A stretch of DNA of 64,000 bases from an uncultured Nitrososphaerota archaeon (lineage in GTDB: Archaea > Korarchaeota > Korarchaeia > Korarchaeales > Korarchaeaceae), in the NCBI GenBank assembly GCA_964594835.1, contig CAZQNA010000006.1, forward strand, positions 82,205-146,204. The letters run 5' to 3'. A program made the translations under genes and the position numbers. The notes beneath the pieces are model-generated. The model had not been told where the DNA came from. It saw only the letters and a list, made by a program, of their open reading frames with translations, and searched no databases. This document shows positions 4,477 through 59,645 of the stretch, one piece after another. Every line of letters begins with the position of its first letter. Within the stretch, counting starts at the first letter, position 1.

Positions 4477-4580
4477 GGAAAGGGGGCGGACTCCCACGGA
4501 ATCGGGCGTCGGCCGTCAGGGCGAAGCGCTGGCTTCCCAGCCCGGTGCCATGCCACTCACTCGTCTGAGGGAGGTTGCGA

Positions 4581-6968
4581 CTAACTGGCCTCCAACAATC
4601 CCTCGAGCGCCGCTGCGACCTCCTCAGGCGAAGACGCGGTGTAGTAGCTCCCCCCGGTCAGGTGGGCCATCAGCGCAGACACCGCGGAGCCCACGGCGAA
4701 CGGGTCGTACCTCCTGGAGGCCATCGCCACGAATCGCCTGGCGTCGAACCGGCCGTCCTCGGAGAGGCTGAGCCTGTAGAGCTGGCCCGCCCCCTGGGGT
4801 GTTATCCTGTGGGCGGACGCCACGGGATCCGGGTTTATCACGGCGACCTTCAGCCCCTCTCTGGCCATCAGCTGGGCCGCGGCTGCGACGTCCTCGATCG
4901 CCTGATGCCTCTGCACGTTGCTGACCGCGTGCTCCCTCCTCCCCCTCCTCCCCGTGAGGGGGTTGACCGGCAGGGGCACGTTGGGGTATCCGTCGGTCAG
5001 GACGATCACGAGGGGATCGGAGTCCGGGTCCCTCAGCCTCTCCGCCCTGGCGAGGGCAAGCGCGAGCATCAGACCTGACGCCAGGGGCGTGAGCCCGGAG
5101 ACGCTGAGCCTGCCCAGGAGCCTCGCGACCTTCGCGACGTTCGTTGTCGGCGGGTGCACCACGAACGCGTCCATGTCCCTGAGGGCGACCACCCCTATCC
5201 TGTCCCTCCTCGAGCTGAGCTCCCTGTACAGCCGGGACAGCGCCCTGGCAAACTCAATCCTGACAAGCGTCATCGAGTCGCTCAGGTCCAGGACTATGAT
5301 CGCCGTCAGGGGGACGTTCCTCTCGTACAGCTTCTCCCTGACATCCTCCGGCCTTATTCTCACCCTCGGTACCTCCTCCGCGGGCGACGAGCCGGCTGCG
5401 ACCGCCGAAGCTATGCTGGCCGTCATGTGAATCGAGGCCGGCCTCCCCCTAGGGATCCTCCACCCCCTGACCCTGCCCCTCTTGACCTCCGGGTCCGTCT
5501 TGGTCCTCCCTCCCCTGGCCGACCTGCCGACCTCCTCCACCTCCAGTATGGGCAGGGCGATCCGCCCAACGGTGGGCACCACCTCAACGCTCTCCTCGGG
5601 GCCGAACCCCGTGACCACGGGACCGAGAAAGGGCCTCAGGAGCGCGCTGACCACGGCAGGCTCGGTGAGCTCGAACCTCGTTCTGGACAGCAGGTATCGG
5701 TAGAGGGCGAGCGCCAGGGCCGACCAGATCAGCAGGATCAGCCTCTGCGTGGGGCTCGCCCCGGGAAAGAGGGAGGCGAAGGCCAGGCTCAGGGCGGCCA
5801 GGAGGGCCAGGAAGAAGGGAACCGACACCGGCACCGCCGGAAGCCTGATCCTCCTCTCCCCCCTCCCCTTACGCCCCCGCTCATCCTCTCCCCTCAGCCT
5901 GGACCCTCTCACCTTTCCCGCCCTCACCTCGGCCCTGGTTGCCTCGGAGAGCGCCTCCTCGATCTCCGCCTCGGTCGCGGGCTCCAGCGTCCCGCCGGCC
6001 CTGGTCCTGTGGGAGAGGGCAAGCTTCGCGGCGAGCCTGACGTGTTCCCAGTCTACCTCCAGTCTACCTTCTAGGGCGGCCAGGGCCCGAGAGGTCTCGT
6101 AGATCGCTATGTCTGGCCTCACTCCGTCCACCCTCAGCCTGTGGCAGAGCTCGGCTATCCCCCTGATCACCTCCTCGGGAACCCTCACCTCCGGCAGGAT
6201 CTCCCTCGCCCTCCTGATCCTATCCCTGATCCTCTCCTGCTCCTCCCTGTACCTCTCGTAGAACCCGATGGGGTCGGCCCTGAACTCCGCGTTCCTCCTG
6301 ATGATCTCCTCCCTCTCCTCCGGTGAGTAGTGCCCCGGGACAGTGACGGAGAGGGCCAGCCTGTCCAGGAGCTGGGGCCTCAGCTCCCCCTCCTCCGGGT
6401 TCATGGAGCCTATCAGTATGAACTCGGACGGGTGCTCGACCGAGATGCCCTCCCTCTCCACCACGTTAATCCCCGAGGCGGCGACGTCGAGCAGGTCGTC
6501 CACCAGGAAGTCTGGGAGCAGGTTGATCTCGTCCACGTAGAGGATGTTCCTGTTGGCCTCCGCCAGCACGCCGGGCCTGAACCTGATCCTCCCCTCCCTC
6601 AGGGTGGCCTCCACGTCCAGGCTTCCCACTACCCTGTCCTCGGTGGCGCTCAGGGGGAGGGTGACGATCCTCATCCTCCTCTTGCGGGTTGGGAGGGGGT
6701 TCTCCCCCCGCTCCATCCGCTCTCTGCACTCCCAGCAGAGGTTGGGCGAGCGGGGGTCGCACCCGAACCTGCAGCCCTCCACGACCTCGACCTCCGGGAG
6801 GAGGTCCTCCAGCGCGCGAACGGCCGTGCTCTTCCCGCTGCCCTTGGGACCCCTGACGAGGAGCCCCCCGATCTTCGGATTGACGACGACCGCCAGGAGG
6901 GCGAGCTTCAGCTCGTCCAGCCCGACCAGAGCGGCGAAGGGATACCTGAGCCACCCCCTCCCGGACAA
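4581..6968 (-). CDS. Mg-chelatase ChlI/ChlD-like AAA+ ATPase fused to a vWA domain, with an internal transmembrane hairpin
   Basis: YPFAALVG, Walker A GPKGSGKS, LYVDEINLL, NPEEGELRPQLLDR; vWA MIDAS DLSDS, GLTPLASGL, LTDG. Two hydrophobic helices lie between the domains. Confidence 0.88.
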   Translation of the reverse strand: MSGRGWLRYPFAALVGLDELKLALLAVVVNPKIGGLLVRGPKGSGKSTAVRALEDLLPEVEVVEGCRFGCDPRSPNLCWECRERMERGENPLPTRKRRMRIVTLPLSATEDRVVGSLDVEATLREGRIRFRPGVLAEANRNILYVDEINLLPDFLVDDLLDVAASGINVVEREGISVEHPSEFILIGSMNPEEGELRPQLLDRLALSVTVPGHYSPEEREEIIRRNAEFRADPIGFYERYREEQERIRDRIRRAREILPEVRVPEEVIRGIAELCHRLRVDGVRPDIAIYETSRALAALEGRLEVDWEHVRLAAKLALSHRTRAGGTLEPATEAEIEEALSEATRAEVRAGKVRGSRLRGEDERGRKGRGERRIRLPAVPVSVPFFLALLAALSLAFASLFPGASPTQRLILLIWSALALALYRYLLSRTRFELTEPAVVSALLRPFLGPVVTGFGPEESVEVVPTVGRIALPILEVEEVGRSARGGRTKTDPEVKRGRVRGWRIPRGRPASIHMTASIASAVAAGSSPAEEVPRVRIRPEDVREKLYERNVPLTAIIVLDLSDSMTLVRIEFARALSRLYRELSSRRDRIGVVALRDMDAFVVHPPTTNVAKVARLLGRLSVSGLTPLASGLMLALALARAERLRDPDSDPLVIVLTDGYPNVPLPVNPLTGRRGRREHAVSNVQRHQAIEDVAAAAQLMAREGLKVAVINPDPVASAHRITPQGAGQLYRLSLSEDGRFDARRFVAMASRRYDPFAVGSAVSALMAHLTGGSYYTASSPEEVAAALEGLLEAS

Positions 6969-8563: not shown

Positions 8564-11500
8564 CTACCTGCCCCTCAAAGCCGCGGCCAGTAGGAGGGCA
8601 GCCGCGAGCGCCGCGGCCACGGCAGAAACGAACAGCAGGGCTGGGCGGGACGTCTCCACGTACAGCCCACCCACGGCCGGTCCGGGGGGAGGGCCGTTGT
8701 TGTTAACGCCTACGCTGGTCACGTAGGGGTCCGCCCCGCACAGCCTGCTATCCGTGTCCACGGTGGGGGGTCCGGGCGCGGTGTCGGATGTCGACAGCTC
8801 CCAATCCGCGCCGCTGGTTGTGAACACGCCGTTCGGGGTGAGGGCCAAGCTCCATGCGTCGCCGGCCCCGCCCGGGGAGTTAGGACCTGCCCAGAATAGC
8901 GCCCCCGGCGGCGGGTCCTCTATCCCCCCGTCCGACCCGTAGGCCACGTAGTCGACGAGCAGGCCGGACGAGTCGAACAGCCAGATGTCGTCTCCAACGT
9001 TCCGGAGCCTGGCGCGTGTGCCGACGTAGAAGTTCGCCGCCGAGGGGGCGCTCCCCACCCCGGGATCCCCCAGCCAGACAACCGCGTAGCTGCCCGCGGA
9101 GAAGACTGAGCCCGGTGGGAACGTGAACTCGAAATTCCCGGGGGACTCGCTCCCGTCCGTCAGGGTCCACCCGCTGACGTCGACGGAAGAGGAGAAGTAG
9201 ATCTCTATGAACTCGTCGTTGGTCGACGCAGTCAGCCCGGCGCCGCACTCGTTGTACAGGACCTCGTTTATGACCACCTCGCCGCGGTGAGGTGACGGAG
9301 ATCCGTAGGAGACGAGGGCGTACTGGTACCTGTCGGCCCCCGACCCCGGGGGAGACTCCCACGCCCCTCCAGACTCGGAGGCTGGATCGAACTCACCATC
9401 CCACGAGTAGACCTCCGGAGGCCTGACGAACCCGTTCAGCGTGAAGGAGTGTGGGTTGTACCGGTAGGTCCCACTCGAGTTGATCTCCACCTCCCTAACC
9501 CTCCACCAGGTGGAGATGTTCTCGTAATCGAAGTCGGGCGGTCCGTACCTCCCCGCGGAGTCCCAGGCGCCCGAGGCGTAGTCGGCCACGTCGTCCCCGT
9601 CGTCTCCTCCGCGGAAGATCTCCACGGTCAGCCCGAGGACGGCGCCCCCTCCCGAGTCCCTCACCTGGACGTACCCGAGCCAGTCCAGCGCGGCCTGTCC
9701 CAGCCCGTTTCCCGACACCGTGTTGTTCCCAACGACCCAGCTCAGGTTTGCCCACGGGTTGTCGAGCACGTAGAGGCCGAGCCCCCCGTTGTCTTGAATC
9801 ACGTTCCCCGAGATCCCCATCCCCCCGAACCCGAGGCCGAGCGACAGGACGTCGTCGGCGTGATCGTCCGGGTGCGAGGATTCGCCGTAGTAGGGCTCCA
9901 CCCTCACGCCGTCCAGGTCGTTGTCGTGAATCGAGTTCCCCGAGACGTTCCCCGAGGAGCCGACCCAGTAGACCCCCCACAGCTCGTTGTCCCAGACCTC
10001 GTTGCTTGCGTTCAGAACGAAGTTGGTGGTCCCGATGAGGATGACGCCGGCTCCCCTGTTGCCGGCCACCCTGTTGCCCTGCAGCAGGGTGGAGTCCGGG
10101 CCCTGAGCGGAACTCCCGTTCACCGGGAAGGGGTAGTGGATCTTGGGGGCGGCGTCGCACGCCACCGCGATGCCGGCTCCGTTCCCCAGCGACCTGTCAG
10201 CCAGGTAATTCCCCCACCGATCGAACGCCCCGACCCAGTTGCGGGAGACGTTGTTCCAGTCTGTCCCAGTTCCGTTAACGAAGATTCCCTCGTAAGCGTG
10301 TCCTCTGACGACGTTGCGGGCCACCAGGTTTCGGCTGGCGCCCCCCGTGATTATGATGCCCAGGCTCATGTTCACCGGGTCCGCCAAGATGTAGTTGTAC
10401 AGGACCTCGTTTCCATCGCTCCCCTGGCCCTCGATCGCCAGATCCTGCCAGGCGTTGTATCCCAGCGTGTTGTTGCGGACCACGTTGTCGTGGGCGCCCG
10501 CGGCGAGCGTCACACCCCCATCCCCGTTGCCCCACGCGAGCCCCGAGGCGTCCACCCCCACCATGTTGTACGCGACCACGTTCCCCTCGGTGGAGGACCC
10601 GGCTAGCAGGATGCCCTCGGCGCTGTTGTTCAGCACGAGGTTCCCGTCCCTCGCGGAGTCGGTTCGGTCAAGCCCGATGTAGTTGGCGAACGGCCCCCTC
10701 CCGCTCGTGGAGTTGGTCACGAGCGCGATCCCCGGCGAGAAGGACCTGGGGAGCCCGCTTTGATCGTACCCGTTTAGGGAGATGTTGTTTCCAAAGATCT
10801 CCATTCCCTCAACCGCGCCCATGAGCAGCACGCCGCCGCCAGGTGCGGTAACCCCGTTGTGGACTATCAGATTCCCGACTATCAACCCCCGCCCCACGGT
10901 GCCCGTCCCGTTGTCGGCCAGGGCGATCCCCCACACCCCGCTCCCCGCCACAGTGCTGTTCCTCACCTCAAGGCCGTACAGATCTGCCCCGTAGAGAAAG
11001 ACCCCGGACAGCCCGCACTCGAGGATTTCAGCCCTCTCTACGGCCGGCCCGGTTATCTCTCCGCCGACCATGTCGTTTCCCACCAGCACTCCGTACGTCC
11101 CGCAGTTGTGAAGCAGAGAGTCCCTCACCGTGACGTTGCTGGAGCGGATCGCGACACAGGCGGTGTCGGCGGTGACGTTTACCCCGAAGATCGTCAGGTT
11201 CCCGAAGTCTTGGGGGGCCCACCCGTACCTGGCGGAGAAGATCCCGACGTAGGAGTCGTACACCGTGAGGTTGGCGAGGATCACCTCGTCCTTTGCGAGG
11301 GTGACCAGGATGGCCTCTCCGGTGAACCCTCTGAGCGTCAGGTTTCTCACGATCGTCTGGCCCCACCAGACCGTTATCACAAGGCCGCTGGCGACGGCTC
11401 CCTGTCCGTCTATCACGACCTCTCCTGGGGCAGTGGCGCCGTCCAGCGTGACTGCCTCGGTGATCTGCGGCAGGGGCGACGAGAGGGCTATCGTTCCGGA

Positions 11501-11716
11501 TACGGAGAAGGTGATCACATCGACCCCCGGGTTGCTGTTCGCGGCCTCTATGGCCTCTCTCAGCGTGCACTCGGTGGCGTCGCATCCGCCGGTTCCCGGA
11601 TCGTTGAGACTGTTGACGGAGTAGGTGGCCCCCTCGACCCTCATGGCGGGGATTGCCAACGTAGCCACGAGCGCCAGGATCGCGATGGTAGCCGCCCTCC
11701 TGCCCAGATCCACCAT
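8564..11716 (-). CDS. Large cell-surface protein: CSLREA motif, parallel beta-helix repeats, lamin-tail-like domain, C-terminal membrane anchor
   Basis: Signal peptide from the likely ATG 11716 (MVDLGRRAATIAILALV); CTLREAI; many GNxI/NNxxxG beta-helix repeats; VVINEVLY...DEFIEI...VDYVAYG; AVGG plus TM plus RGR tail. Confidence 0.85.
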   Translation of the reverse strand: MVDLGRRAATIAILALVATLAIPAMRVEGATYSVNSLNDPGTGGCDATECTLREAIEAANSNPGVDVITFSVSGTIALSSPLPQITEAVTLDGATAPGEVVIDGQGAVASGLVITVWWGQTIVRNLTLRGFTGEAILVTLAKDEVILANLTVYDSYVGIFSARYGWAPQDFGNLTIFGVNVTADTACVAIRSSNVTVRDSLLHNCGTYGVLVGNDMVGGEITGPAVERAEILECGLSGVFLYGADLYGLEVRNSTVAGSGVWGIALADNGTGTVGRGLIVGNLIVHNGVTAPGGGVLLMGAVEGMEIFGNNISLNGYDQSGLPRSFSPGIALVTNSTSGRGPFANYIGLDRTDSARDGNLVLNNSAEGILLAGSSTEGNVVAYNMVGVDASGLAWGNGDGGVTLAAGAHDNVVRNNTLGYNAWQDLAIEGQGSDGNEVLYNYILADPVNMSLGIIITGGASRNLVARNVVRGHAYEGIFVNGTGTDWNNVSRNWVGAFDRWGNYLADRSLGNGAGIAVACDAAPKIHYPFPVNGSSAQGPDSTLLQGNRVAGNRGAGVILIGTTNFVLNASNEVWDNELWGVYWVGSSGNVSGNSIHDNDLDGVRVEPYYGESSHPDDHADDVLSLGLGFGGMGISGNVIQDNGGLGLYVLDNPWANLSWVVGNNTVSGNGLGQAALDWLGYVQVRDSGGGAVLGLTVEIFRGGDDGDDVADYASGAWDSAGRYGPPDFDYENISTWWRVREVEINSSGTYRYNPHSFTLNGFVRPPEVYSWDGEFDPASESGGAWESPPGSGADRYQYALVSYGSPSPHRGEVVINEVLYNECGAGLTASTNDEFIEIYFSSSVDVSGWTLTDGSESPGNFEFTFPPGSVFSAGSYAVVWLGDPGVGSAPSAANFYVGTRARLRNVGDDIWLFDSSGLLVDYVAYGSDGGIEDPPPGALFWAGPNSPGGAGDAWSLALTPNGVFTTSGADWELSTSDTAPGPPTVDTDSRLCGADPYVTSVGVNNNGPPPGPAVGGLYVETSRPALLFVSAVAAALAAALLLAAALRGR

Positions 11717-11764
11717 GCCCAGTCGGGCTGGGATGCCCGTCAGGTTCTCTTTAAACATCTCACG

Positions 11765-11852: not shown

Positions 11853-13736
11853 CTAGTCGAGCTGGAGCCTCTCAGGCCTCCCCCGGCGTCGTCTTCCCTT
11901 ATCCTCAAGCAATCCGGGTATATACTCGGCGAGTGACTTTCTCCTCCTCCTGGCCAAGGCCTCCTCGATCGAGCTAGAGGTCACGACCTCGTAGACCCTG
12001 GCGACCTTCCCGGGCCTGCCCCTGAGAACCCTGCCGACCCTCTGGGCCATCTGTCTCGGAGACCCGCTCCCGCTGGCTATGATGGCCACATCGGCGTCGG
12101 GCACGTCGATCCCCTCGTCCAGCACCCTGGTCGTCACTATCACGTCCAGGTCGCACCTCCTGAAGGCGTCGAAGATCTCGGCCCTCTCCCTGGTCTTCCC
12201 CACCATCAGGGCCGATCTGATGCCCCTCTTTTCAAGCTCCCCCTGAATGGCCTCGGCCTGATCCACGTACTCGCAGAACACCAGTATCTTGCGCCCCCCC
12301 TCCGACTCCACGATGGACGCCACGACGGGGATCTTTGCCCTCGCCCTCAGGGCGTGCCTCTTCATCACGGCCAGCCTCGCGTTCTCATCCCTTACCCTGG
12401 CCAGCTGGGCCATCATGGCCCTGCGCTCGTCGGGCTCCATCCTGACCCTGACCACCCTGTGCTCCAGCCTGGCGAGCACGCCCATATTTACAAGCTCCCT
12501 GTACCCCACCTTGTAAACCACGTCTCCCGAGGAGAGGAAGATCAGGTGCTCGTTTCCGTCGCTCCTCTCCGGCGTGGCGGACAGGCCCAGGCGGTACTTG
12601 GCTCTGCTGGCGAAGGCGACCTTCCTGAACGTGCTAGCTGGCACGTGGTGGACCTCGTCGAAGATCACGAGGCCGAAGAGGTTCCTCAGCCTGTCGATGT
12701 GCTTGGCGACCGAGTTGTATATCCCGACCACGACGCCGGGCGACAGGTCCTTCTCCCTCCCGCTGAACTCCCCCGTAGTAACTCCCAGCTTGGACTCGAT
12801 GAGTTCCCTCCACTGCGTGGCTAGCTCTGCCGTGACCACACAGACAAGCGTCCTCTGCCTCGTCCTGGCGATGGCCTCTAGCCCGACGAAGGTCTTCCCT
12901 CCCCCCGTGGGGATCACAACGGTGCCGAACCTCTCGGCCCTCTCCCACCTATCTACGGCCTCCCTCTGGAAGGGGTAGAGCTCGTAATCCCTGCTCGGAA
13001 CTTCGATTGGTTGGGATGGCCACGAGACGTCCTCTTCAAACTCCAGCCCCTCGAAGCTGGCGAACCTCTTGAGGTGGTGGTACATGAATGGGGGGACCAC
13101 GTGGGCCAGCCTGCCCACCCGCCTCGCCAGCCTCATCCTCCTGGTCTCGAGACCCCGCCTGGTCTGGACGTTGACGCTCACGGTGAAGAGATCCTCCAGC
13201 CTCGAGAGCTGGTCTGGGGTGAGGCCCCCGGCCTCCAGGAGGATTCCCTCCTCGTGGTCCCGCACCGTCAACCTCCCCGGACCCCGGACCCTGGAGGCCG
13301 CCAGCCTGACGAGGTCCTCCCTCCAGTACCCGCCCACGGATCTCGCCAGCCTGAGCGCGCCGTCGATCCCCTCTGAGGACACGATCGCCGCGAGCTCGTC
13401 GGGATCGACGACGAGATAGTCCCCCTCCCTCCTGAAGGGGCGGACACGCCCATCTCCCGGGAGGAAGACGGCCAGCACCCCTCTCTCCGCCATCTCCCTC
13501 AGCCTGCCGTCCACCGACGACCTGAAGACCTCGACGACCTCCCTCACCGCGTCCTCCGGCACCCCGATCCTCCTGAGGACGTCCCACCCTCTGGACAGCG
13601 CAAGCCCGGGATCCAAGACCCACGCCTTCTCCCCGGGGTCGAACCTGCAGATCTCCCTGATCAGCCCCAGGACCTCTTCGAACTCGTCGTCCCCAAGGCT
13701 CTTCACGAAGCTCTTCGATCCTACCCTGACCCTCAA
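11853..13736 (-). CDS. Superfamily II helicase, XPB/Rad25-like, with N-terminal extension
   Basis: LYPFQREA Q-motif, PTGGGKT, DEVH, LSATPER, DEGIDVP, QRVGRVLR. Likely TTG start at 13736 with an abutting GGAGG. Confidence 0.9.
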   Translation of the reverse strand: MRVRVGSKSFVKSLGDDEFEEVLGLIREICRFDPGEKAWVLDPGLALSRGWDVLRRIGVPEDAVREVVEVFRSSVDGRLREMAERGVLAVFLPGDGRVRPFRREGDYLVVDPDELAAIVSSEGIDGALRLARSVGGYWREDLVRLAASRVRGPGRLTVRDHEEGILLEAGGLTPDQLSRLEDLFTVSVNVQTRRGLETRRMRLARRVGRLAHVVPPFMYHHLKRFASFEGLEFEEDVSWPSQPIEVPSRDYELYPFQREAVDRWERAERFGTVVIPTGGGKTFVGLEAIARTRQRTLVCVVTAELATQWRELIESKLGVTTGEFSGREKDLSPGVVVGIYNSVAKHIDRLRNLFGLVIFDEVHHVPASTFRKVAFASRAKYRLGLSATPERSDGNEHLIFLSSGDVVYKVGYRELVNMGVLARLEHRVVRVRMEPDERRAMMAQLARVRDENARLAVMKRHALRARAKIPVVASIVESEGGRKILVFCEYVDQAEAIQGELEKRGIRSALMVGKTRERAEIFDAFRRCDLDVIVTTRVLDEGIDVPDADVAIIASGSGSPRQMAQRVGRVLRGRPGKVARVYEVVTSSSIEEALARRRRKSLAEYIPGLLEDKGRRRRGRPERLQLD

Positions 13737-13828
13737 CCTCCGTACCGGCTGCCGCCCCAGAATAAAACTCGCGGCTCCGGGCCCGGAACTCGGCGTGTTG
13801 TTCAAAAATATTGACAGTAAAACGATAG

Positions 13829-13843
13829 AAAAAAATTAAATTC
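13829..13843 (+). promoter_or_regulatory. Archaeal BRE/TATA-like promoter of the SHOCT operon
   Basis: A-tract followed by TTAAAT in the AT-rich divergent intergenic region. Confidence 0.5.
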
Positions 13844-14012
13844 AGTCCGAATGCCGTAGGAAGCGAGCCCCAGTTAGGGGTCTCGCTTAGTCGAGGGCCA
13901 AGAGGTGTGCCCTGGGGGTGTGGCCCTCCGGGTGACGTCCCCTCCGGGCGCGCCCGGGTGAGCGGCCCTAGGACATGCTTCTTCTGGCCTGTGCGACCGA
14001 GGTGAGGCTCCG

Positions 14013-14951
14013 TTGGGTTCACCTGATGAGCGGATCAGGAGGCTCGAGGAGTTGAGGAGGAGCGGGAAGATAAGCGAGGAGCTCTACAGGGAGCTGAGGG
14101 CCAAGTACGAGGCCGAGGCTACTGGACTGGCTCGAAGGGTCTCGGAGAGGAGGGAAAAGGGCGCCAAGGAGAGGGGAACGTCCCTGGGCAAGCTGATCCC
14201 GGCCGTCGTCCTCGTGTTGCTCGTCGTGGGCGGGGCCATGTACGCGCTTCGGGGGAGGTCCGGCCTGGCGGGGGGAGGGCCGACTCCAACATCAACGGGG
14301 GCGGGGGAGATCCCCCCAGAGTCGAGTCCAACGTCGCCCCCGGGCCCCGGAGGTCAGGCCGGCGGCGGAGCTGGGGCTGGGGCGGTCACGTTTGAGCAGG
14401 CCCTGGGGACGGCCGCCTCGGCGGCCCGCTCCTGGTGCCCTGACTCGTACCCGATCGAGGGCACCCTGCCCTGGATGGGCAGGGATTCAACCCTCCCCGG
14501 GTTCAGGGGGCTGGCCTCCGAGTGGGCGTTCAGGTTCTTCTGTCCCGGATCCAGAAAGACGGCCACGTTCCGGTACGTCTCGGGGTCGGTGGAGCAGGAG
14601 GAGATACTCGGTGAGCGCGAGTTCGAGTGGTCCCCCGACTTCACGCCTCAGCCGCTGAGCCCGATGGTGAGCGGCACCTCGGCCTTCGCCATCGCCTACA
14701 CGTCGGGCGGTCGTCAGTTCGTCCAGGATCACCTGGGCGAGACGGTCTACGTCTTCATGGCAGTTGCCGGCTCTGACGTGGGGCGCTACTACGGTTGGAG
14801 CAACCTATACGGATGGCCCGGCGAGGTCAGCTCTGAGGAGGCGTGGGTAGTGATCTTCGCGCTCGGGGGAGGGGGCGAGGCCTACGGGGTTTGCCTGGAC
14901 GCGGACACGGGTGAGGTGCTGGCTGCCGAGGGCTTCACCCCGGGAGGGTAG
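14013..14951 (+). CDS. SHOCT-like domain + TM + Pro/Gly linker + extracellular PepSY-like domains
   Basis: LEELRRSGKISEELYRELR; TM LIPAVVLVLLVVGGAMYAL; VTFEQAL...WAFRF and WVVIF...VCLDADTGEVL. Confidence 0.7.
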   Translation: MGSPDERIRRLEELRRSGKISEELYRELRAKYEAEATGLARRVSERREKGAKERGTSLGKLIPAVVLVLLVVGGAMYALRGRSGLAGGGPTPTSTGAGEIPPESSPTSPPGPGGQAGGGAGAGAVTFEQALGTAASAARSWCPDSYPIEGTLPWMGRDSTLPGFRGLASEWAFRFFCPGSRKTATFRYVSGSVEQEEILGEREFEWSPDFTPQPLSPMVSGTSAFAIAYTSGGRQFVQDHLGETVYVFMAVAGSDVGRYYGWSNLYGWPGEVSSEEAWVVIFALGGGGEAYGVCLDADTGEVLAAEGFTPGG

Positions 14952-14959
14952 GTGGTGAG

Positions 14960-15865
14960 ATGAGTTCTCCCGAGGAGAGGCTGAGGAAGCTGGAGGAGGC
15001 CCTCCTGGAGGGTAGAATAAGCGAGGAGACCTACAGGGAGCTGAGGGCCAAGTACGAGGCCGAGGCCAGGGCGGCTGGAAGACCAGCCCGCCCACCCGCC
15101 CCGGCTCGCCAGCGGGGGAGGAGCGGGAAGTGGCTAGCGGCGGCCTTGGGGGTCCTGATCCTGCTGGCGGCAGCTGGTCTTTGGTTCTGGGTCGTCCCGC
15201 ATTGGCAGGGTCAGACTAGCCCTCTCCCAACCACCCCCGCCCCTCCGCCGGGCGGGGGTGGAGGTGGAGGTGGAGGTGGAGGCGGGGGCGGGCCGAGCCC
15301 CCCCATTACGACCACGACGCCGCCTGCATCGTCAGGTCGACCCCAAGAGGGCGTCCCCGCGGTGAGGCCGGGGTGGGCGACCTACAGGCTGACCCAGGCT
15401 GGGCAGGGGGCGGTCACGGTCACGTTCAGGATCTCCGGCCCGGAGCCCAAGGAGGGGAGGTCTTGCTGGAGGTACGTGACCCAGACGTGCCCCGAGGGAC
15501 TATGCGACGTGATGTACAGCGAGACTGTCGTGTGGCTCGACGAGAACACCCTGGAGCCCGTGTACTGGGAGATGAACGTCTACCAGGGTGAGAACAGGGT
15601 GGTCCACCAGGAGGGCGCCGGGGGTCCCTCGGGCAAGCAGGTCTACGACCCCTCCAGGGTCCCGAGGGAGGCCACCTACCTGGGGAGGGAGTCCGTGACG
15701 GTTCCCGCCGGGACGTTCACCTGCGACAAGTTCTCCGTGTCGAAAGACGGTGTCACCACGACCATCTGGGTCAGCGACGAGGTCCCCTCGATCGGGATAG
15801 TGAGGCTCGCCACTGAGGTGGAGGGCATCGAGTCAGAGATGGTGCTCGTGGACTACGGCCACTGA
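14960..15865 (+). CDS. SHOCT-like domain + TM + poly-Gly linker + DUF3108-like beta domain
   Basis: LLEGRISEETYRELR; TM WLAAALGVLILLAAAGLWFWVV; ESVTVPAGTFTC and TIWVSDEVPSIGIVR. Confidence 0.75.
   Translation: MSSPEERLRKLEEALLEGRISEETYRELRAKYEAEARAAGRPARPPAPARQRGRSGKWLAAALGVLILLAAAGLWFWVVPHWQGQTSPLPTTPAPPPGGGGGGGGGGGGGGPSPPITTTTPPASSGRPQEGVPAVRPGWATYRLTQAGQGAVTVTFRISGPEPKEGRSCWRYVTQTCPEGLCDVMYSETVVWLDENTLEPVYWEMNVYQGENRVVHQEGAGGPSGKQVYDPSRVPREATYLGRESVTVPAGTFTCDKFSVSKDGVTTTIWVSDEVPSIGIVRLATEVEGIESEMVLVDYGH
14961..15091 (+). repeat. 131-bp inverted repeat, left arm
   Basis: Identical to the reverse complement of 17239-17369; encodes the shared N-terminus SSPEERLRKL...AAGRPAR. Confidence 0.95.
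15257..15280 (+). repeat. (GGTGGA)4 microsatellite within the poly-Gly linker
   Basis: Four exact hexamer copies inside a 14-Gly run. Confidence 0.85.
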
Positions 15866-15872
15866 GGGTTCG

Positions 15873-15890
15873 CAGGGGGGCGACCCCCTG
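15873..15890 (+). terminator. GC-rich hairpin with a GCGA tetraloop, 8 nt after the stop codon
   Basis: CAGGGGG-GCGA-CCCCCTG, a perfect 7-bp stem. Function is inferred. Confidence 0.4.
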
Positions 15891-15972
15891 AGCAGCCGGT
15901 GTGTTAGATCACGCCATTCTGTAAAATTTATTTCCAAAAAAGTTATAATACACTCCTAAAACGAAACGAGCA

Positions 15973-16626
15973 ATGGAGAGAGTGGATAGAGAGGCCCAGA
16001 TAAGGCGGAAGATGAAGGAGCTCAAGAGGCTCCGGAAGTCCGGGGAGATATCGGAGCCCACCTACCGCAAGATGATGGCCGAGCTGGAGGCGGAGCTCAG
16101 GGAGGCGAAAGAGGCGAAGAGAAAGAGGGGCAGGGAGGCTGCAAAGGCCGGGCGGCGGGGGGTTCAGCTCCCCTCTCTGCCGGGTCTTCCCTCCAGGGCA
16201 CCCCGGAGGCGAGCGAGCTGGGTGCCACCCGTCCTCGGGGCCGTATTTGGCCTCCTCACGCTGGCGATCGCCTCGATCTACAGGCCAAGCGCGCTGGGCA
16301 GCTTCTCCGGACTCTTCATCCTGCCTGCCGCCGCGGGATTCGCCTGCGGCGTCCCCTGCTCGCTGGGCGGGGGCGGCCTTCGCGAGGCCTCCTACGCAGT
16401 CCTGGGCTCCCTGCTGGCCTACTCCCTGCTGTCGGCCGGGGCCCTGAAGACCTCGGCCGCTTGGGCCGGGGCCCTGGCCTCCACGCTCCTCACTCCAGAG
16501 GCCTCTGGCGATCCCCTCAGGCTGTCGGTCTCGGCATTCCTCTGTCTCCTCGCGCCGGCGTTCATCGGCGGGTACGCCGCCACGAAGGCCATCCCGAGGA
16601 GGGGGAGGCGATCCTCATGGGTCTGA
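15973..16626 (+). CDS. SHOCT-like domain + four-TM membrane protein
   Basis: LKRLRKSGEISEPTYRKMM, then about 4 hydrophobic helices. Has its own AT-rich promoter at about 15920-15950. Confidence 0.75.
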   Translation: MERVDREAQIRRKMKELKRLRKSGEISEPTYRKMMAELEAELREAKEAKRKRGREAAKAGRRGVQLPSLPGLPSRAPRRRASWVPPVLGAVFGLLTLAIASIYRPSALGSFSGLFILPAAAGFACGVPCSLGGGGLREASYAVLGSLLAYSLLSAGALKTSAAWAGALASTLLTPEASGDPLRLSVSAFLCLLAPAFIGGYAATKAIPRRGRRSSWV

Positions 16627-16970
16627 TTGACGTCCTGATCAGGGGTGTGGTGCTGACCGACGCCCTGATTCGGAACCTGATGATGAGGGATACCCTGCCG
16701 ATACACGCCTCTCTGGACTTTGGACTGGCCACGCTCGGGCTAGTGGGGCTCCTCTACCTCACCAACCTGAGGAAGAGGGCCGGCTTCTGGCTGGGGGTAT
16801 TCGGACTCGGGGCCACGAGCTTCGTCTTCAGGAGCAAGATAGCAGGCGGGCTGCTCTCGCTTCTCTTCCTGAAGAGGTTCTGGAAGACCTTCCTGATACT
16901 TGTCCTGTCCCTCCTCCTCATATATCAGGGAGTCGGGGACCTAGCCCTGATGTCCGTCGGCCTGCGCTGA
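16617..16970 (+). CDS. Small integral membrane protein (about 3 TM)
   Basis: ATG 16617 overlaps the end of the upstream gene; hydrophobic helices; host-like codon usage. Confidence 0.7.
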   Translation: MGLIDVLIRGVVLTDALIRNLMMRDTLPIHASLDFGLATLGLVGLLYLTNLRKRAGFWLGVFGLGATSFVFRSKIAGGLLSLLFLKRFWKTFLILVLSLLLIYQGVGDLALMSVGLR

Positions 16971-16995
16971 CCCCCTCACATTCCTCTCAGGCCGC

Positions 16996-17370
16996 TCAGG
17001 CGGACTCCAGCCTCCGTCTCTCCGCCTCCAGCTGCCTCATGTCAGAGATCAGCGACTTGAGCTCGGGATCCGTGGGCTCATACTCGCCGCTCTCTATCAG
17101 CCTGAATACCCTCCACCCGATCTTCTGCGCGACCTTGTCCATCTTTCCCTCGATCAGCTTGATCTCGGCCTTGGCCTTGGCGCTCTCGAGGCTCTCCTTT
17201 ATCTTATCCAGAACCCCTCCCTCCTCGCCCTCCTCCTTGCGGGCTGGTCTTCCAGCCGCCCTGGCCTCGGCCTCGTACTTGGCCCTCAGCTCCCTGTAGG
17301 TCTCCTCGCTTATTCTACCCTCCAGGAGGGCCTCCTCCAGCTTCCTCAGCCTCTCCTCGGGAGAACTCAA
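16996..17370 (-). CDS. Soluble SHOCT-like + coiled-coil protein
   Basis: First 44 aa match the 14960 product (TTG start), followed by a helical domain AKAKAEIKLIEGKMDKVAQKIGWRVF. Confidence 0.8.
   Translation of the reverse strand: MSSPEERLRKLEEALLEGRISEETYRELRAKYEAEARAAGRPARKEEGEEGGVLDKIKESLESAKAKAEIKLIEGKMDKVAQKIGWRVFRLIESGEYEPTDPELKSLISDMRQLEAERRRLESA
17239..17369 (-). repeat. 131-bp inverted repeat, right arm
   Basis: Exact reverse complement of 14961-15091. Confidence 0.95.
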
Positions 17371-17549
17371 CGCGGGAGCACCTTAGAGGTTCATCCGGCC
17401 TCTCTTTTTACCCTTTCCAACCCCATAACCGCTCTCGGTCACTACGCGTTAAATCTGTTGACGGTCCTCTCGCCATCCAGACCGCCCGAGCGCCGGCTCG
17501 GCCGCCGCAACGTTAATGGCCTGTCCGGGCCGTCCCCTTGGGCGGTACG

Positions 17550-18194
17550 ATGGGGTCGACCGAGTTCAAGTCCAAGGAGGAGGCCAAGAGGGCCCTTGAC
17601 CAGCTCGACGAGGAGCTCATAGAGGGCAAGATCAGCGAGGAGGAGTACCGCAGGAGGAAGGCCGACATCGAGAGGCAGATCGAGATCATGGAGCTCGAAG
17701 ACATGCTCATAGAGGGCAAGATAACCGAGGAGGAGTACAGGAGAGCCAAGGCCTCCCTGCTGGGGAAGGCCGAGCCGGTCGAGGCCGTGTCGCCCGAAGG
17801 GGTGTCGGAAGTCGCGAGGAAGATCTCTCAAATGGCGTCGAAACTCTCCGAGATCAGGGAGAAGAGGGAGAAGCTGAGGGACCTCCTCATATCCAAGGAG
17901 ATATCCGAGGCCACGTTCCAGAAGCTTGACTCCGAGTACGAGGAGAAGGAGAAGTCCCTTGAGCTCAAGGTGAAGGAGCTCGAGGAGGAGTCCAGGGAGA
18001 GGCTGAAGGAGATCGAACAGAAGCTGGAGGAGATCAAGCTGATGAGGGAGGAGATGAAGGCCAGGCACCTCCTGGGGGAGATCCCGAAGTCGGAGTACGA
18101 GTCCAAGGACGGAGAGCTGGCCTCTCAGGCCGAGAGGCTGGAGGCGGAGAGGGAGAGCATATCCTCCGCCCTGAAGGCCGTCGGTCTGGAGTGA
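17550..18194 (+). CDS. CdvA-like coiled-coil protein with tandem SHOCT-like repeats
   Basis: Four units (LIEGKISEEEY, LIEGKITEEEY, LISKEISEATF, LLGEIPKSEY) separated by coiled coil. The last two have the spacing of the CdvA helical domain. No PRC barrel. Confidence 0.65.
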   Translation: MGSTEFKSKEEAKRALDQLDEELIEGKISEEEYRRRKADIERQIEIMELEDMLIEGKITEEEYRRAKASLLGKAEPVEAVSPEGVSEVARKISQMASKLSEIREKREKLRDLLISKEISEATFQKLDSEYEEKEKSLELKVKELEEESRERLKEIEQKLEEIKLMREEMKARHLLGEIPKSEYESKDGELASQAERLEAERESISSALKAVGLE

Positions 18195-18275: not shown

Positions 18276-19484
18276 TCACCACCTCCTCCCGTCTCCGGTG
18301 AAGGGTCTGAAGGTTATCTTGTCCCTCTCCCTGATTATCTGCCTCAGGAGCCTTCTGGCCCTCTCCGGGGGCAGGTTGAGGAAGAGCGCTGCGAGGTGCT
18401 TGCAGAACATCTTCTTCTGGGACTGCCTCGACCAGTCGGCGCAGTCGTGGAGGATCACCCCCTGCCGGAGGTCTATCGTCACGTCGTAGCCCCTCACCCT
18501 GGCCATCAGGATGTCCCCCCTGTCCGTCAGGACCTCCACCTGGCTGGCCGGCATCTCGATGGCCCTCTCAAGTCTCCTCTCATCTGTGATGGACCTGAGG
18601 AGCCCGAGAACCTCTTCCCTCCCCCTCGGAACCTCCTCGCGGACCTGCGGCCCGCCGATGAAGCCCTCTAGTGAGGTCGGGGCCCTCGATGCGATCTCCT
18701 CCCTCCAGGCCCTGATCCTCTTGAGGGCCTCCTCCTGCCGGGAGTCTGCCGCCCCCAGGATCTTCAGCATCAGGATGGCGTTCTCCGGGGCATACGCGTG
18801 GTAGTGGTTGTTGAAGTAGCCGTAGACCCTCTTCGCCGAGGAGGCCGCCTCCTCGACGGCCCTGGCCCAGGGCCTCAGCTCATCCTCAGAGTAGAGGTAG
18901 TTGTACGGGACCTTCTCTCCCCTCCCGTGCCACCTGAAGTAGCCCACGTCCGACGTGACCACGGCCCTGGGAGGGGCGCCTCCCCAGTCCGACACGACGT
19001 ACGCCGCGCCGGCGGACTCCATCATCCTGAGGACCCTCGGGTCGTCCCAGCTCGGGTGCCTGAACTCGAGGGCGAGGGTGGCCCACTCAGGGGCGAGCGA
19101 GAGGAGGTGCTCCAGCCTGTCCGGCTTGGCCCTGAAGCTTGGCGGGAGCTGGACGAGGATCGGGCCCAGCTTTCCGGCGGAGCGGAGGGGCTCCAGAGAG
19201 TCGAAGAAGAGCTCCAAGTCCGCCTTGATCCCCCTGTCGAGCCTGAGCCTCTTCCTGTGGGTCACGTCCCTCAGCATCTTGACCGAGAAGTCGAAGCCCT
19301 CCGGCGTGACCCTGGCCATGCCCGCCAGGGTCTCGGCATCGAGGATCTGGTAGAAGGTGGAGTTGACCTCGGTGGTGTTGAACAGCCTCGAGTAGAGCGT
19401 GAGCCTGGCCCCTCCTGACCTGGGATAGAAGGGGCCGACCCAGTCGGCGTAGTCCCACCCGGAGGTTCCTATCCTCAGGTCCAA
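18276..19484 (-). CDS. DUF72-family protein fused to a C-terminal SWIM-type zinc finger
   Basis: IGTSGWDY, EVNSTFY, QLPPSF, EFRHPSW, YFRWHG, YFNNH; tail HDCADW...FCKHL. Likely TTG start at 19484; the longer ORF-track N-terminus overlaps another gene. Confidence 0.88.
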   Translation of the reverse strand: MDLRIGTSGWDYADWVGPFYPRSGGARLTLYSRLFNTTEVNSTFYQILDAETLAGMARVTPEGFDFSVKMLRDVTHRKRLRLDRGIKADLELFFDSLEPLRSAGKLGPILVQLPPSFRAKPDRLEHLLSLAPEWATLALEFRHPSWDDPRVLRMMESAGAAYVVSDWGGAPPRAVVTSDVGYFRWHGRGEKVPYNYLYSEDELRPWARAVEEAASSAKRVYGYFNNHYHAYAPENAILMLKILGAADSRQEEALKRIRAWREEIASRAPTSLEGFIGGPQVREEVPRGREEVLGLLRSITDERRLERAIEMPASQVEVLTDRGDILMARVRGYDVTIDLRQGVILHDCADWSRQSQKKMFCKHLAALFLNLPPERARRLLRQIIRERDKITFRPFTGDGRRW

Positions 19485-19609
19485 GGACCCTGCCCGAGTG
19501 TGGGACCCGCCGGTAAAATTAACGGCTTCTCGGCCCCCGCATCGGCCGAAGGTTGGAGGCCATCGACTCATCCGGCTGGCCCGGGGGCGGGCAAGATCGC
19601 CTTGGGGGC

Positions 19610-19885
19610 CTACCTCAAGAGATCCTCCCAGCCCATGGGCACGATCCCCCTCTCTATCGCCCGCCTGGCAGCGGCGATCGCCCACTCCGGGGGCCGCCTC
19701 TCGGCCCGCCCCACCCTCAGGCCGCAGCCGGAGCAGTACTCGGCCCCCACCATCCTCCCCAGGATGCGGTGAACGCCGAGGGAGCAGTGCCCCCTGGGCT
19801 CTCCCCCTCCGCTCGACCCCCTCGCAAAGACCTGGAACCAGCGGCAGTCCACGCCAGACCCCTCTGCCGCGGGGCTCGTCGCCAT
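19610..19885 (-). CDS. Small Cys-rich (possible Zn/Fe-S binding) hypothetical protein
   Basis: GGAGGTG RBS before ATG 19885; DCRWF, HCSLG and YCSGC. Confidence 0.65.
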   Translation of the reverse strand: MATSPAAEGSGVDCRWFQVFARGSSGGGEPRGHCSLGVHRILGRMVGAEYCSGCGLRVGRAERRPPEWAIAAARRAIERGIVPMGWEDLLR

Positions 19886-19985
19886 GCGACTCACCTCCCC
19901 GGGAGGGTCCACCGACCCTGCCCCGGAGCCAATATAACCATGCCACCACCACGAACGTTTAACCGGTCTGGGGGAGGCGCTCCGG

Positions 19986-25351: not shown

Positions 25352-25597
25352 ATGGAGGTGGTGGCGACCGTCGACGATAGGGGGAGGGTGACGCTGCCCA
25401 AGGAGTTCAGAGAGGCCCTCGGCATCCGGAGGAGGGTCAAGATCAGGAAGGAGGGTGAGAGGATAGTGATAGAGCCGGCCGACCCCGTGTCAAGGAGGTT
25501 CTACGGCGCCTTCAGGGCCGAGGTCCCGGAGGACCTGGACGGGATCGTGGTGGAGGCGGTGGCGGCGTGGTGGAGGAGAGGTCGTACGTCGACGTGA
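25352..25597 (+). CDS. AbrB/MazE-family antitoxin (VapB)
   Basis: VDDRGRVTLPKEFREALG; overlaps the PIN gene. Confidence 0.9.
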   Translation: MEVVATVDDRGRVTLPKEFREALGIRRRVKIRKEGERIVIEPADPVSRRFYGAFRAEVPEDLDGIVVEAVAAWWRRGRTST

Positions 25598-25977
25598 ACG
25601 TGTTCGTCTACTGGCTCACCGCGGACCCGAGGTTCGGGGAGAGGGCCCTCAGGTGGATCGAGAGGGTGGAGGAGGATCCGAGGTCGTACGCGACGTCGGC
25701 CCTGACCCTCTGGGAGGTCCCAGTCATCCTGGCCGGCATCCTGGGCTCGACGCTGCGGGATCCCGACCTGGCGACCCGGGCGGTCAGGGCCGTGGTGGAG
25801 ACGGGGGTGACGGTGGTGGAGCTGAGGAGGGAGGACTACCTGAGGGCCCTGGAGTTCGTCCTCCGGGGGGCCGACCTAGAGGACGCGATACACCTAGCCT
25901 CGGCCCTCCGGGCCGGCTGCACCAGGGTGGTTTCCAACGACAGGGACTTCGAGAGGTTCATCCGGAGGGTCTTCTAG
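25567..25977 (+). CDS. vapC: PIN-domain toxin VapC
   Basis: YVDVNVF, TSALTLWE, EDAIHLASA, SNDRDF. Confidence 0.92.
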   Translation: MVEERSYVDVNVFVYWLTADPRFGERALRWIERVEEDPRSYATSALTLWEVPVILAGILGSTLRDPDLATRAVRAVVETGVTVVELRREDYLRALEFVLRGADLEDAIHLASALRAGCTRVVSNDRDFERFIRRVF

Positions 25978-26948: not shown

Positions 26949-27692
26949 TTGACCGGAAGGGCCAGGACCAGTGTCTTCGTCGGGACCTCCGGGTGGTTCT
27001 ACGACTGGAACCCGGACGGGCTGGAGTGGTACGTCAGCTCCTCGGGGCTCAACGCCGTCGAGCTGAACGCCAGCTTCTACCGCTTCCCCAGGCCCTCGAC
27101 GGTGCGCAGGTGGGCCGGCGTCGGGGAGGGGATCAGGTGGGCGGTGAAGGTCCACAGGGGGATCACCCACACTAGGAGGCTGTCCAGATCGGCCCTGGGA
27201 CTCTGGGAGAGGTTCGAGGACCTCTTCTCTCCGCTAGACGGGCTGATCGACTTCTACCTGTTTCAGATGCCGCCGAGCTTCTCCCGAACCCCCGAGAGCG
27301 AGCGGAGGGTCGGGGAGTTCGCCGCGGAGTCGGGGCTTCGGGAGAGGATGGCGGTCGAGTTCAGGCACCCGAGCTGGTTCTCAGAGGGTGTGGAGGAGTG
27401 GGCCCGGGATCTGGGAATAACGCTGGTCTCCGTCGACGCCCCCGAACTTCCGAGGACCGTGTTCAACACCTCACAACGCGTCTACCTCAGGATGCACGGC
27501 AGGACCTGGTGGTACGCCCACCGCTACACGCTCGAAGAGCTGACTGAGGTGGCCCGCTCGCTGCTGGCCCTGGATGCTGAGGCCGTCTACGTGTTCTTCA
27601 ACAACGACCACGACATGCTGGACAACGGGCGGACGATGCTGGCCCTCCTGGGCGGTGAGGTCAGGGGTCAGCGCACCCTCGACCTGGATTGA
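26949..27692 (+). CDS. DUF72-family protein (second copy)
   Basis: VGTSGW, ELNASFYRFP, QMPPSF, EFRHPSW, YLRMHG, FFNND. Confidence 0.92.
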   Translation: MTGRARTSVFVGTSGWFYDWNPDGLEWYVSSSGLNAVELNASFYRFPRPSTVRRWAGVGEGIRWAVKVHRGITHTRRLSRSALGLWERFEDLFSPLDGLIDFYLFQMPPSFSRTPESERRVGEFAAESGLRERMAVEFRHPSWFSEGVEEWARDLGITLVSVDAPELPRTVFNTSQRVYLRMHGRTWWYAHRYTLEELTEVARSLLALDAEAVYVFFNNDHDMLDNGRTMLALLGGEVRGQRTLDLD

Positions 27693-58680: not shown

Positions 58681-59247
58681 ATGTACTCCATAGCGGTCAA
58701 CCTCCGCTCCCCCAGGGAGTGGAGGAGAAAGGTTCAGGAATTCACATCGAGGCTCGAGGCGGCCCTCGGCGACAGGCTGGTCATGGTGGTGGCCCTACCC
58801 TCACCCTCCGACTCCCTGTACGACTCCAACGTCCTCGTCGTCCTGGACCGGATCGGGCCCGGCGACCTGGAGGCCGTCGCCTCGATCTCCCCGGAGGGGG
58901 TCAGCCCTCTGGTCGTCCCCGAGGGGGACAGGCAGGCGGTCGAGGCCTTCACCTCATACGAGCCTCCGTCTGACGAGTGGGGGGACAAGTTGACGTCCTT
59001 CCTGTCGGACCTTGCCGAAAAGTTCGGCGACAGGCTGGTCATGGTGGTGGCCCTACCCTCACCCTCCGACTCCCTGTACGACTCCAACGTCCTCGTCGTC
59101 CTGGACCGGATCGGGCCCGGCGACCTGGAGGCCGTCGCCTCGATCTCCCCGGAGGGGGTCAGCCCTCTGGTCGTCCCCGAGGGGGACAGGCAGGCGGTCG
59201 AGGCCTTCACCCTGGCGGGAGGCCGCGAGGTCGGGGGCCGGGGTTGA
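58681..59247 (+). CDS. Tandem-duplicated, degenerate minimal nucleotidyltransferase (MNT)-like antitoxin
   Basis: Two copies of GDRLVMVVALPSPSDSLYDSNVLVVLD; lies upstream of a HEPN gene. Confidence 0.7.
   Translation: MYSIAVNLRSPREWRRKVQEFTSRLEAALGDRLVMVVALPSPSDSLYDSNVLVVLDRIGPGDLEAVASISPEGVSPLVVPEGDRQAVEAFTSYEPPSDEWGDKLTSFLSDLAEKFGDRLVMVVALPSPSDSLYDSNVLVVLDRIGPGDLEAVASISPEGVSPLVVPEGDRQAVEAFTLAGGREVGGRG
58766..59211 (+). repeat. Exact 188-bp direct repeat (258-bp period) inside the MNT gene
   Basis: 58766-58953 is identical to 59024-59211. Confidence 0.95.
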
Positions 59248-59288: not shown

Positions 59289-59645
59289 ATGCCCGGGGAC
59301 CTCGAGCGGAAGTCCAGGAGACTCGAGGAGGAGGCCCTCGAGGACCTGAGGGTGGGGTGCTTCAACAAGGCCGTGAGCGCGGCCTACTTTGCCGTCAGGC
59401 TCGCCGCGGAGTCTAGACTTAGGGGGCTCAGGACCAGGCGTGATGACAAGATAGCAAACGCCCTTGCCAGGCTGCTCGTTAGGACCCTGGGCGAGGAGGG
59501 GGCGGAGCGCGTAAGGAAGGAGTACCTGGCCCTGTTTGAGGCCAGGAAACTCGCGGACCACAGGCCATACCAATTCTCCAGGGAGGAGGCCGAACTCTTG
59601 ATCTCAAAGGCCAGGGAGCTCCTGAGGATAATATGGGGGCTCTAG
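59289..59645 (+). CDS. HEPN-domain protein (putative toxin)
   Basis: AVSAAYFAV helix; RKLADH is an R-X4-H motif; SREEA tail. Confidence 0.85.
   Translation: MPGDLERKSRRLEEEALEDLRVGCFNKAVSAAYFAVRLAAESRLRGLRTRRDDKIANALARLLVRTLGEEGAERVRKEYLALFEARKLADHRPYQFSREEAELLISKARELLRIIWGL

Follow-up and report, generated by a model that had tools for sequence, protein, structure and literature searches.

In Campylobacter fetus, opposed homologues of the sap S-layer locus have the same conserved 5′ region, a few hundred bases long, and largely general recombination inverts the DNA that lies between them; the inversion alters which homologue is expressed, with a single promoter carried on the invertible piece and the homologues pointing outwards. 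Programmed inversions that alter genes, namely shufflons and the invertons of Type I restriction hsdS genes, have been surveyed in bacteria only (PMC9881135), and are also treated in a further survey (PMC7672463). For archaea, a preprint describes invertons as a minimally investigated topic, with 12 putative cases in 42 archaeal datasets (PMC10028968). Gene conversion and concerted evolution between archaeal paralogues are documented for the mtrA copies of methanogens (PMC4632066), and gene conversion between paralogues has been surveyed prokaryote-wide (PMC6053082). Here, we describe a perfect inverted repeat formed by the 5′ ends of two convergent genes, B and D, in a 64,000-nt stretch (hereafter “the window”) of contig CAZQNA010000006.1 from an uncultured archaeon. 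We hold, with moderate confidence, that this repeat is the footprint of recent non-reciprocal homologous recombination (gene conversion), D onto B, in a lineage-specific block of genes. Any flipping of the segment between the repeat arms is regarded as incidental, with no dedicated switch, and a programmed switch is unsupported, though not refuted.

Five genes (A, B, C, C2′ and D) lie between a minus-strand helicase gene (11853–13805) and gene E, making a six-gene cluster when E is counted (Table 1). The arms, one at the start of B and the other at the start of D, are exact reverse complements over 131 nt (100% identity) and enclose an interior of 2147 nt. On the outer side, the first identical position is base 2 of each start codon (ATG at 14960 for B, TTG at 17370 for D), and the 10 bases outside each arm are similar at chance level only; on the inner side, it ends with codon 44, after which B reads CCA... 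and D reads AAG.... An earlier note on this DNA, made by inspection of the sequence, had described the arms as exact reverse complements, synonymous sites included, that differ at the first start-codon base only, and our recomputation gave the same result. That note had also seen a near-copy of about 50 bp in gene A, and we recovered it as the third and shortest copy (Table 1): with 3 mismatches allowed at most, the 50-nt arm core occurs at three sites of the window and in 0 of 100 shuffles.

The arm pair is the sole long high-identity inverted repeat of the window, the five other listed pairs being 35–37 nt long and 70–75% identical. For comparison, we used the 80 loci returned by a genome scan with the helicase that neighbours the cluster, none of them above 55% helicase identity; perfect inverted repeats of at least 40 nt within 20 kb numbered none in these 80 loci (1,280,256 bases), versus one in the window. 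At the codon level, all 43 codons agree given the same 43 residues, for which the codon usage of 35 window genes yields P = 10^-12.2. Agreement at this level, all synonymous sites included, argues for very recent common DNA ancestry of both arms, and codon bias is insufficient to account for the identity.

Structurally, the arm coincides with a recognizable unit of the protein. In a model of D (mean predicted local distance difference test (pLDDT) 80.2, built on 9 sequences), helices span residues 4–16, 22–38, 50–94 and 102–123, the latter two forming a long hairpin, and residues 42–49 form a low-confidence linker; since the first two helices are followed by this linker, the arm (codons 1–44) is predicted to encode an autonomous module of two helices and the first part of a flexible linker. 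When the full window was searched in six frames for the motif G[KRE]-I-[ST]-x-[EDP]-x-[YF], six occurrences were found, all within the cluster: two in E and one in each of A, B, C and D. The Pfam family SHOCT (PF09851) scores 19 bits against C and 22.7 bits against E, both below the cut-off of 27, and the module of B and D has no Pfam SHOCT match at E values up to 0.1; because no match attains the curated cut-off, we call the module “SHOCT-like” only. When a D-family profile was searched against 1.84 billion representatives (E value ≤0.001), 32 matches were obtained, comprising three full-length D relatives, one match elsewhere in the profile, and 28 through the module alone, where it is N-terminal (17 proteins), C-terminal (8) or internal (3). 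From these matches, the module appears to be promiscuous across protein bodies, many of them archaeal. SHOCT itself is described, in the sections of its original paper cited here, as a short two-helix module of unknown function that occurs with many unrelated domains, and its oligomerisation was unsupported by that paper's own test (PMC3581485). The arm module is likewise two-helix and promiscuous, and C-terminal in eight proteins as in classical SHOCT; it differs in that the B/D module is without a Pfam match and is N-terminal here.

Evolutionarily, the arm can be assigned to one of its two carriers through their relatives. D has eight database homologues (P0002–P0009; 64–96% identity in the alignment), and the module is kept in all eight, with residues 10–25 invariant. 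Leu stands at the TTG position in six of the eight, the remaining two entries starting after that position, and the junction from arm to D body (...PAR/KEEG...) runs uninterrupted through P0002 and P0003, the closest of these homologues. That D homologues keep the module, the Leu and the junction argues that the arm is the native 5′ end of D, and the arm is thus of D type by origin. In close D orthologues, the last 12 arm codons differ from the window (AEAEMA-KPAR in P0002, a 5-residue deletion in P0003), and such differences in the fast-evolving end of the arm suggest that the perfect B/D identity is recent, or has been actively maintained, since that split. As for B, the distant B-type proteins P0011 and P0012 (both at 33% identity) and P0046 comprise a module, a transmembrane (TM) segment, a Pro/Thr linker and a DUF3108-like domain, and the spelling of their modules is unlike that of the arm. 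Since distant B relatives carry a module of their own, B would have had a homologous module available for overwriting, and it is best read as a chimera, with D codons 1–44 on B's own body.

We infer from these comparisons both the conversion mechanism and its D-to-B direction. In the scenario that we propose, the 5′ module of D (codons 1–44) would have been copied over the homologous, diverged 5′ module of its convergent paralogue B, which would have left two perfect 131-nt copies, inverted to each other, with B retaining its own ATG and D the TTG of its family. Identity would then stop where B/D homology stops, that is, at the start codon on one side and within the flexible linker past the module on the other. 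As a by-product, the 2147-nt interior would have become invertible by the general recombination machinery, in a flip that is silent for the proteins.

The surroundings of the cluster bear on the age of the block. The window has a G+C content of 61–70% (2-kb windows) and encodes archaeal-type genes, e.g., an XPB-like helicase and deoxyhypusine synthase; the nearest helicase relatives (49–55% identity) come from metagenome-assembled archaea, several labelled Korarchaeum or “Kor3”, and one module-bearing homologue carries the source label Candidatus Korarchaeota. The organism is therefore probably related to Korarchaeia. In all 80 loci, genes A, B, C, C2′ and D were undetected. Only one of the 80 is syntenic, L009, a contig of 6.3 kb with 58% G+C, whose E, DUF72 and F proteins are 55–67% identical to those of the window (55.5% for the E orthologue). 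There, E and the helicase adjoin, divergent and 229 bp apart (4343–6299, corresponding to 11853–18194 of the window), and the A–D block is missing, so that E is the sole cluster member kept beside the helicase in a relative. The intergenic region of L009 has only 7–9-nt chance words in common with two window intergenic regions, and the A–D block has no phage or plasmid DNA match. By this comparison, the 3.4-kb A–D block would either have been inserted or expanded in the window's lineage alone or have been lost from L009; with L009 lacking the block and none of the 80 loci carrying A–D genes, we read it as a recent local expansion.

The geometry of the locus also invites a different reading, and the earlier note had proposed that it is a shufflon-like expression switch. 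Of the attributes of programmed inversion, the locus possesses an inverted-repeat pair within coding sequence with a short segment between. When the segment 15092–17238 is flipped in silico, the left-hand open reading frame (ORF), of 124 amino acids (aa), matches D letter for letter after the start residue, and the right-hand ORF, of 301 aa, matches B in the same way. The note's statements that a flip restores both proteins in frame, and that it swaps the ATG/operon and TTG/opposing-promoter contexts between the genes, are therefore borne out, as is its description of a membrane-anchored protein opposite a soluble one (B has one TM-like segment, D none). The geometry stands, while the switch itself has no positive support: the flip produces no new protein variant, would silence neither gene, and leaves C and C2′ with a presumed promoter of their own. 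All that is exchanged is context, the A operon with ATG against the D upstream region with TTG. Since a start codon and a Shine-Dalgarno-like AGGTG are present at both arms, neither gene would be silenced, and a flip would swap dosage at most; C and C2′ flip along with their own presumed TATA-like promoter and would hence be unaffected. Nor does the locus resemble an invertible promoter, as the sole promoter-like element inside the segment (15920–15952) would drive C and flips with it, and the promoters of A–B and D are presumed to lie outside the arms. A site-specific recombinase in or near the locus is usual, if not universal, in programmed inversion; in keeping with the note's observation that the window holds none, 0 of the 87 window ORFs match recombinase, integrase or transposase families in Pfam, and the window holds no further arm copies or silent cassettes. 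The alternative that the note had mentioned, recent gene conversion or domain shuffling, is the better fit to the comparative data.

Could the segment 15092–17238 nevertheless flip in the population, through a recombinase outside the window or frequent RadA-type recombination, and be selected for a change in B/D dosage? We consider this unlikely. The repeat is perfect, long and rare, and repeated recombination would itself keep the arms identical; that both reading frames survive the flip also speaks for real flipping, and B is the membrane-anchored protein with an ectodomain, surface-exposed proteins being often cited as bacterial inversion targets. Examples of invertible regions with no recombinase nearby have been documented (PMC9881135), and archaeal invertons are reported to be barely explored, with the 12 putative cases in 42 datasets mentioned above (PMC10028968). 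On the other side, no protein variant results, the start codon and AGGTG occur in both contexts, and C and C2′ are apparently under their own promoter inside the segment; the absence from the window of recombinase families, silent cassettes and extra arm copies also counts against it, and apart from the repeat it has no positive support. Start residues in the databases provide one further point. P0006 and P0007 begin with V, whereas P0005, the same protein taken from a different source, starts with M, so that the source of the former appears to write start codons literally; P0003, a D orthologue from this literal-start source, begins with L, and this one sequence would fit the TTG-linked state of D in the window. 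General recombination can nonetheless act on any perfect 131-nt inverted repeat, and rare flipped molecules would be unsurprising. That the locus is a working inverton, in which general recombination or a distant recombinase makes two full gene bodies swap the ATG-operon and stand-alone-TTG contexts, we judge to be quite unlikely. If true, such an inverton would be of a kind not described before (no search was aimed at Korarchaeia inverton reports), with neither protein changed nor a promoter turned, and it would govern how much of a membrane-anchored protein with an ectodomain is made relative to a soluble coiled-coil protein that shares its 44-residue module.

Several observations weigh against gene conversion as the source of the repeat. 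The identity takes up all of the sequence that is homologous between B and D and breaks off abruptly where non-homologous sequence begins at either end, and classical gene conversion requires homology flanking the tract on both sides; with no diverged homologous flanks left, an inverted duplication plus fusion is hard to tell from conversion. The rarity of the perfect 131-nt inverted repeat (0 in 1.28 Mb) is also what would be expected of a selected element. Database searches found no close full-length orthologue of B, the only close match being P0010, which equals B residues 135–301 with the GTG at 15362 read as M, and B's former N-terminus consequently has to be deduced from distant relatives alone. 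In favour of conversion, gene A offers a second mosaic trace, though one that is suggestive, not decisive: compared with B, 15 of 16 same-residue codons are identical in codons 20–36 and four of nine in codons 2–19, as might be left by a short conversion patch, with the C and E modules agreeing with B at 7/12, 9/14 and 9/12 of same-residue codons. Full agreement of 16 same-residue codons has P = 10^-3.5, a moderate significance only, and several of the codons concerned (E, K, Y) are nearly single-codon in this genome.

The first of these points leads to another origin, in which the first 132 bases of D were duplicated in inverted orientation and fused by illegitimate recombination to the membrane/ectodomain part of B, with no prior module in B. 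The abrupt end of identity at non-homologous sequence on both sides would follow naturally from such an event; the copied piece would be exactly one structural module plus half a linker, and the module is found on many unrelated protein bodies. This origin is unlikely, however, as distant B-type proteins already carry a module at the same N-terminal position, gene A, with the same layout, aligns codon for codon with B from the start codon, and the ATG of B versus the TTG of D is as expected if only the interior of an existing module was replaced. It is very improbable that assembly or polishing created the perfect identity (through mis-mapped reads homogenising the modules) or the orientation of the interior (through arbitrary placement of the segment): although the source is uncultured and all relatives are metagenome-assembled, the window contains another perfect repeat of similar size (188 nt, direct, 58766–58953 and 59024–59211), and orientation between inverted repeats is what an assembler can get wrong tracelessly, both junctions yield intact coding-like ORFs of sensible architecture, the D arm and its junction to the D body are seen independently in P0002 and P0003, the identity stops sharply in frame where consensus artefacts tend to fade, and a misjoin at the arms would still need an existing repeat.

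One candidate trace of the interior as a separate assembly product was considered and set aside. The longest listed contig of P0010, at 2207 nt, equals 2147 + 2 × 30 nt, like a k=31 contig of the interior; the P0010 gene call passes over the in-frame TTG at codon 63 and begins only at codon 135, which suggests a contig that starts further in, and no conclusion was drawn.

Table 1 Coordinates of the repeat arms, genes and expression signals in and around the A–D block (positions are those of the window).
Feature	Position	Strand	Description
Left arm	14961–15091	+	B codon 1 (bases 2–3) to codon 44
Right arm	17239–17369	-	D codon 1 (bases 2–3) to codon 44
Third, shorter copy of the arm core, in gene A	14070–14119	+	48 of 50 bases identical; flanks within the module diverged
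Gene A	14013–14951	+	312 aa; TTG start; SHOCT-like N-terminal module; TM-like segment 54–82; third-position G+C 0.83
Gene B	14960–15865	+	301 aa; ATG start; arm-encoded module; TM-like segment 55–82; Pro/Gly-rich linker; DUF3108-type ectodomain
Gene C	15973–16626	+	217 aa; SHOCT-like N-terminal module; three TM-like segments
Gene C2′	16617–16970	+	117 aa; small, hydrophobic; ATG overlapping the end of C; one long TM-like stretch
Gene D	16996–17370	-	124 aa; TTG start; arm-encoded module; disordered linker; long helical hairpin; no TM-like segment
Gene E	17538–18194	+	218 aa; two tandem SHOCT-like modules and coiled coil; no TM-like segment
B start signals	14950–14962	+	Shine-Dalgarno-like AGGTGGTGAG, then ATG; 8 nt past the A stop
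Hairpin after B	15873–15890	+	7-bp G+C stem, 4-nt loop; begins 8 nt past the B stop
AT-rich promoter-like stretch before C	15920–15952	+	TTATAA at 15943–15948, about 27 nt 5′ of the C ATG
D upstream signals	17379–17410	-	TATA-like TAAAAAGA at 17410–17403; AAGGTG at 17384–17379, 8 nt before the TTG

The gene calls of Table 1 are backed by ORFs and by third-position G+C (GC3). B and D are both coding-like, with a GC3 of 0.83 each, and the GC3 frame changes at about 16600, in support of C2′, which has no family match in the searches made. Gene A has an orthologue, P0015, at 83% identity over 312 aa; its ectodomain has no Pfam or NCBIfam match, and A shows no likeness to B past the first 75 residues. 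The B ectodomain matches DUF3108 (PF11306) with 34.5 bits (E value 2.5e-8), above the curated cut-off of 26, in a partial match that covers residues 228–276 only, against profile positions 134–192 of 209. In the linker of B, 14 glycine codons follow one another in a run of GGTGGA-type short repeats (15250–15295), which is likely a site of length variation and assembly breaks. TTG starts appear to be a habit of the family: A and D both start with TTG, their same-source orthologues (P0015 and P0003) begin with L, and B has ATG. For the function of D, there was no NCBIfam match, a best PDB sequence match at an E value of 0.18, and no significant fold match. A match to CdvA falls short for both E and D. 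The CdvA-like score of E is 25.6 bits, against a Pfam cut-off of 30, and the best fold match of D, to a CdvA filament, has an E value of 1.5 and a template-modelling score (TM) of 0.47, with 0 matches at ≤0.001. The sub-cut-off CdvA-like score of E and the non-significant CdvA filament fold matches of the D model are retained as a lead only.

With respect to expression, the A–B gap contains no AT-rich promoter-like cluster, and the 8-nt spacing of A and B suggests that the two are coupled in an operon. The hairpin past the B stop may mark a transcript end. The AT-rich stretch before C is one among 61 AT-rich clusters of the window; its promoter role was judged by the usual archaeal TATA-to-start spacing, and the distance of its TTATAA from the C ATG would fit a leaderless transcript. 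Upstream of D, where an AT-rich cluster occupies 17403–17410, the signals listed in Table 1 probably act as promoter and ribosome-binding elements. The transcription units would accordingly be A–B, C–C2′, D and E. Ahead of gene A, between the AT-rich helicase/A promoter region and the A TTG, lies G+C-rich sequence, about 150 nt long and including an evident hairpin (13845–14012), which may be a long structured leader and has no Rfam family match.

Across the window, no tRNA and no Rfam family was found. The 188-nt direct repeat lies within an ORF (58681–59247) just upstream of a HEPN-domain gene (59289–59645), its copies 258 nt apart from start to start (86 codons, in frame), and would stem either from the very recent duplication of an internal domain or from faulty assembly. 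Beside the helicase, 8564–11758 encodes a protein of 1064 aa that looks secreted and carries right-handed beta-helix repeats together with a lamin-tail domain. At 25352–25977, a gene for a MazE-like antitoxin precedes one for a PIN-domain protein, and the two are likely a toxin-antitoxin pair. The window also holds two DUF72 paralogues (18276–19952 and 26949–27692), the first with a C-terminal extension of about 160 residues that is kept in L009.

If gene conversion of D onto B is what produced the repeat, the locus is a clean and datable case of module-level gene conversion between otherwise unrelated archaeal proteins, which would show how a genome keeps a short promiscuous module uniform and how invertible structures arise as a side effect. 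Such a case would be useful background wherever invertons are called by repeats alone. Should the segment prove to flip measurably, it would be among very few archaeal invertons, and one of unusual logic, with context swapped and proteins unchanged.

Set beside the known systems, the locus resembles shufflons and hsdS invertons in having inverted repeats inside coding sequence, a constant 5′ part with alternative 3′ bodies, and frames that survive the flip. In those systems, however, inversion changes the protein, usually by joining an expressed 5′ part to silent 3′ cassettes, and a recombinase usually lies near, whereas B and D are each complete and have a start of their own, the proteins stay unchanged, and no recombinase family is represented in 64 kb. 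The likeness to known conversion between paralogues lies in one paralogue being overwritten in part, in paralogues that are closer to each other than orthologues are, and in a mosaic of identity; what differs is that the tract comprises a 44-codon module only, on otherwise unrelated proteins, and that the partners are inverted, giving a potentially invertible product. The sap locus of C. fetus is similar in its conserved 5′ regions on opposed homologues and in its reliance on general recombination. Finally, where the sap homologues of C. fetus point outwards around a promoter that inverts with the DNA between them, B and D converge and their presumed promoters lie outside the segment, so that a flip would swap the expression of the two genes rather than turn either on or off.

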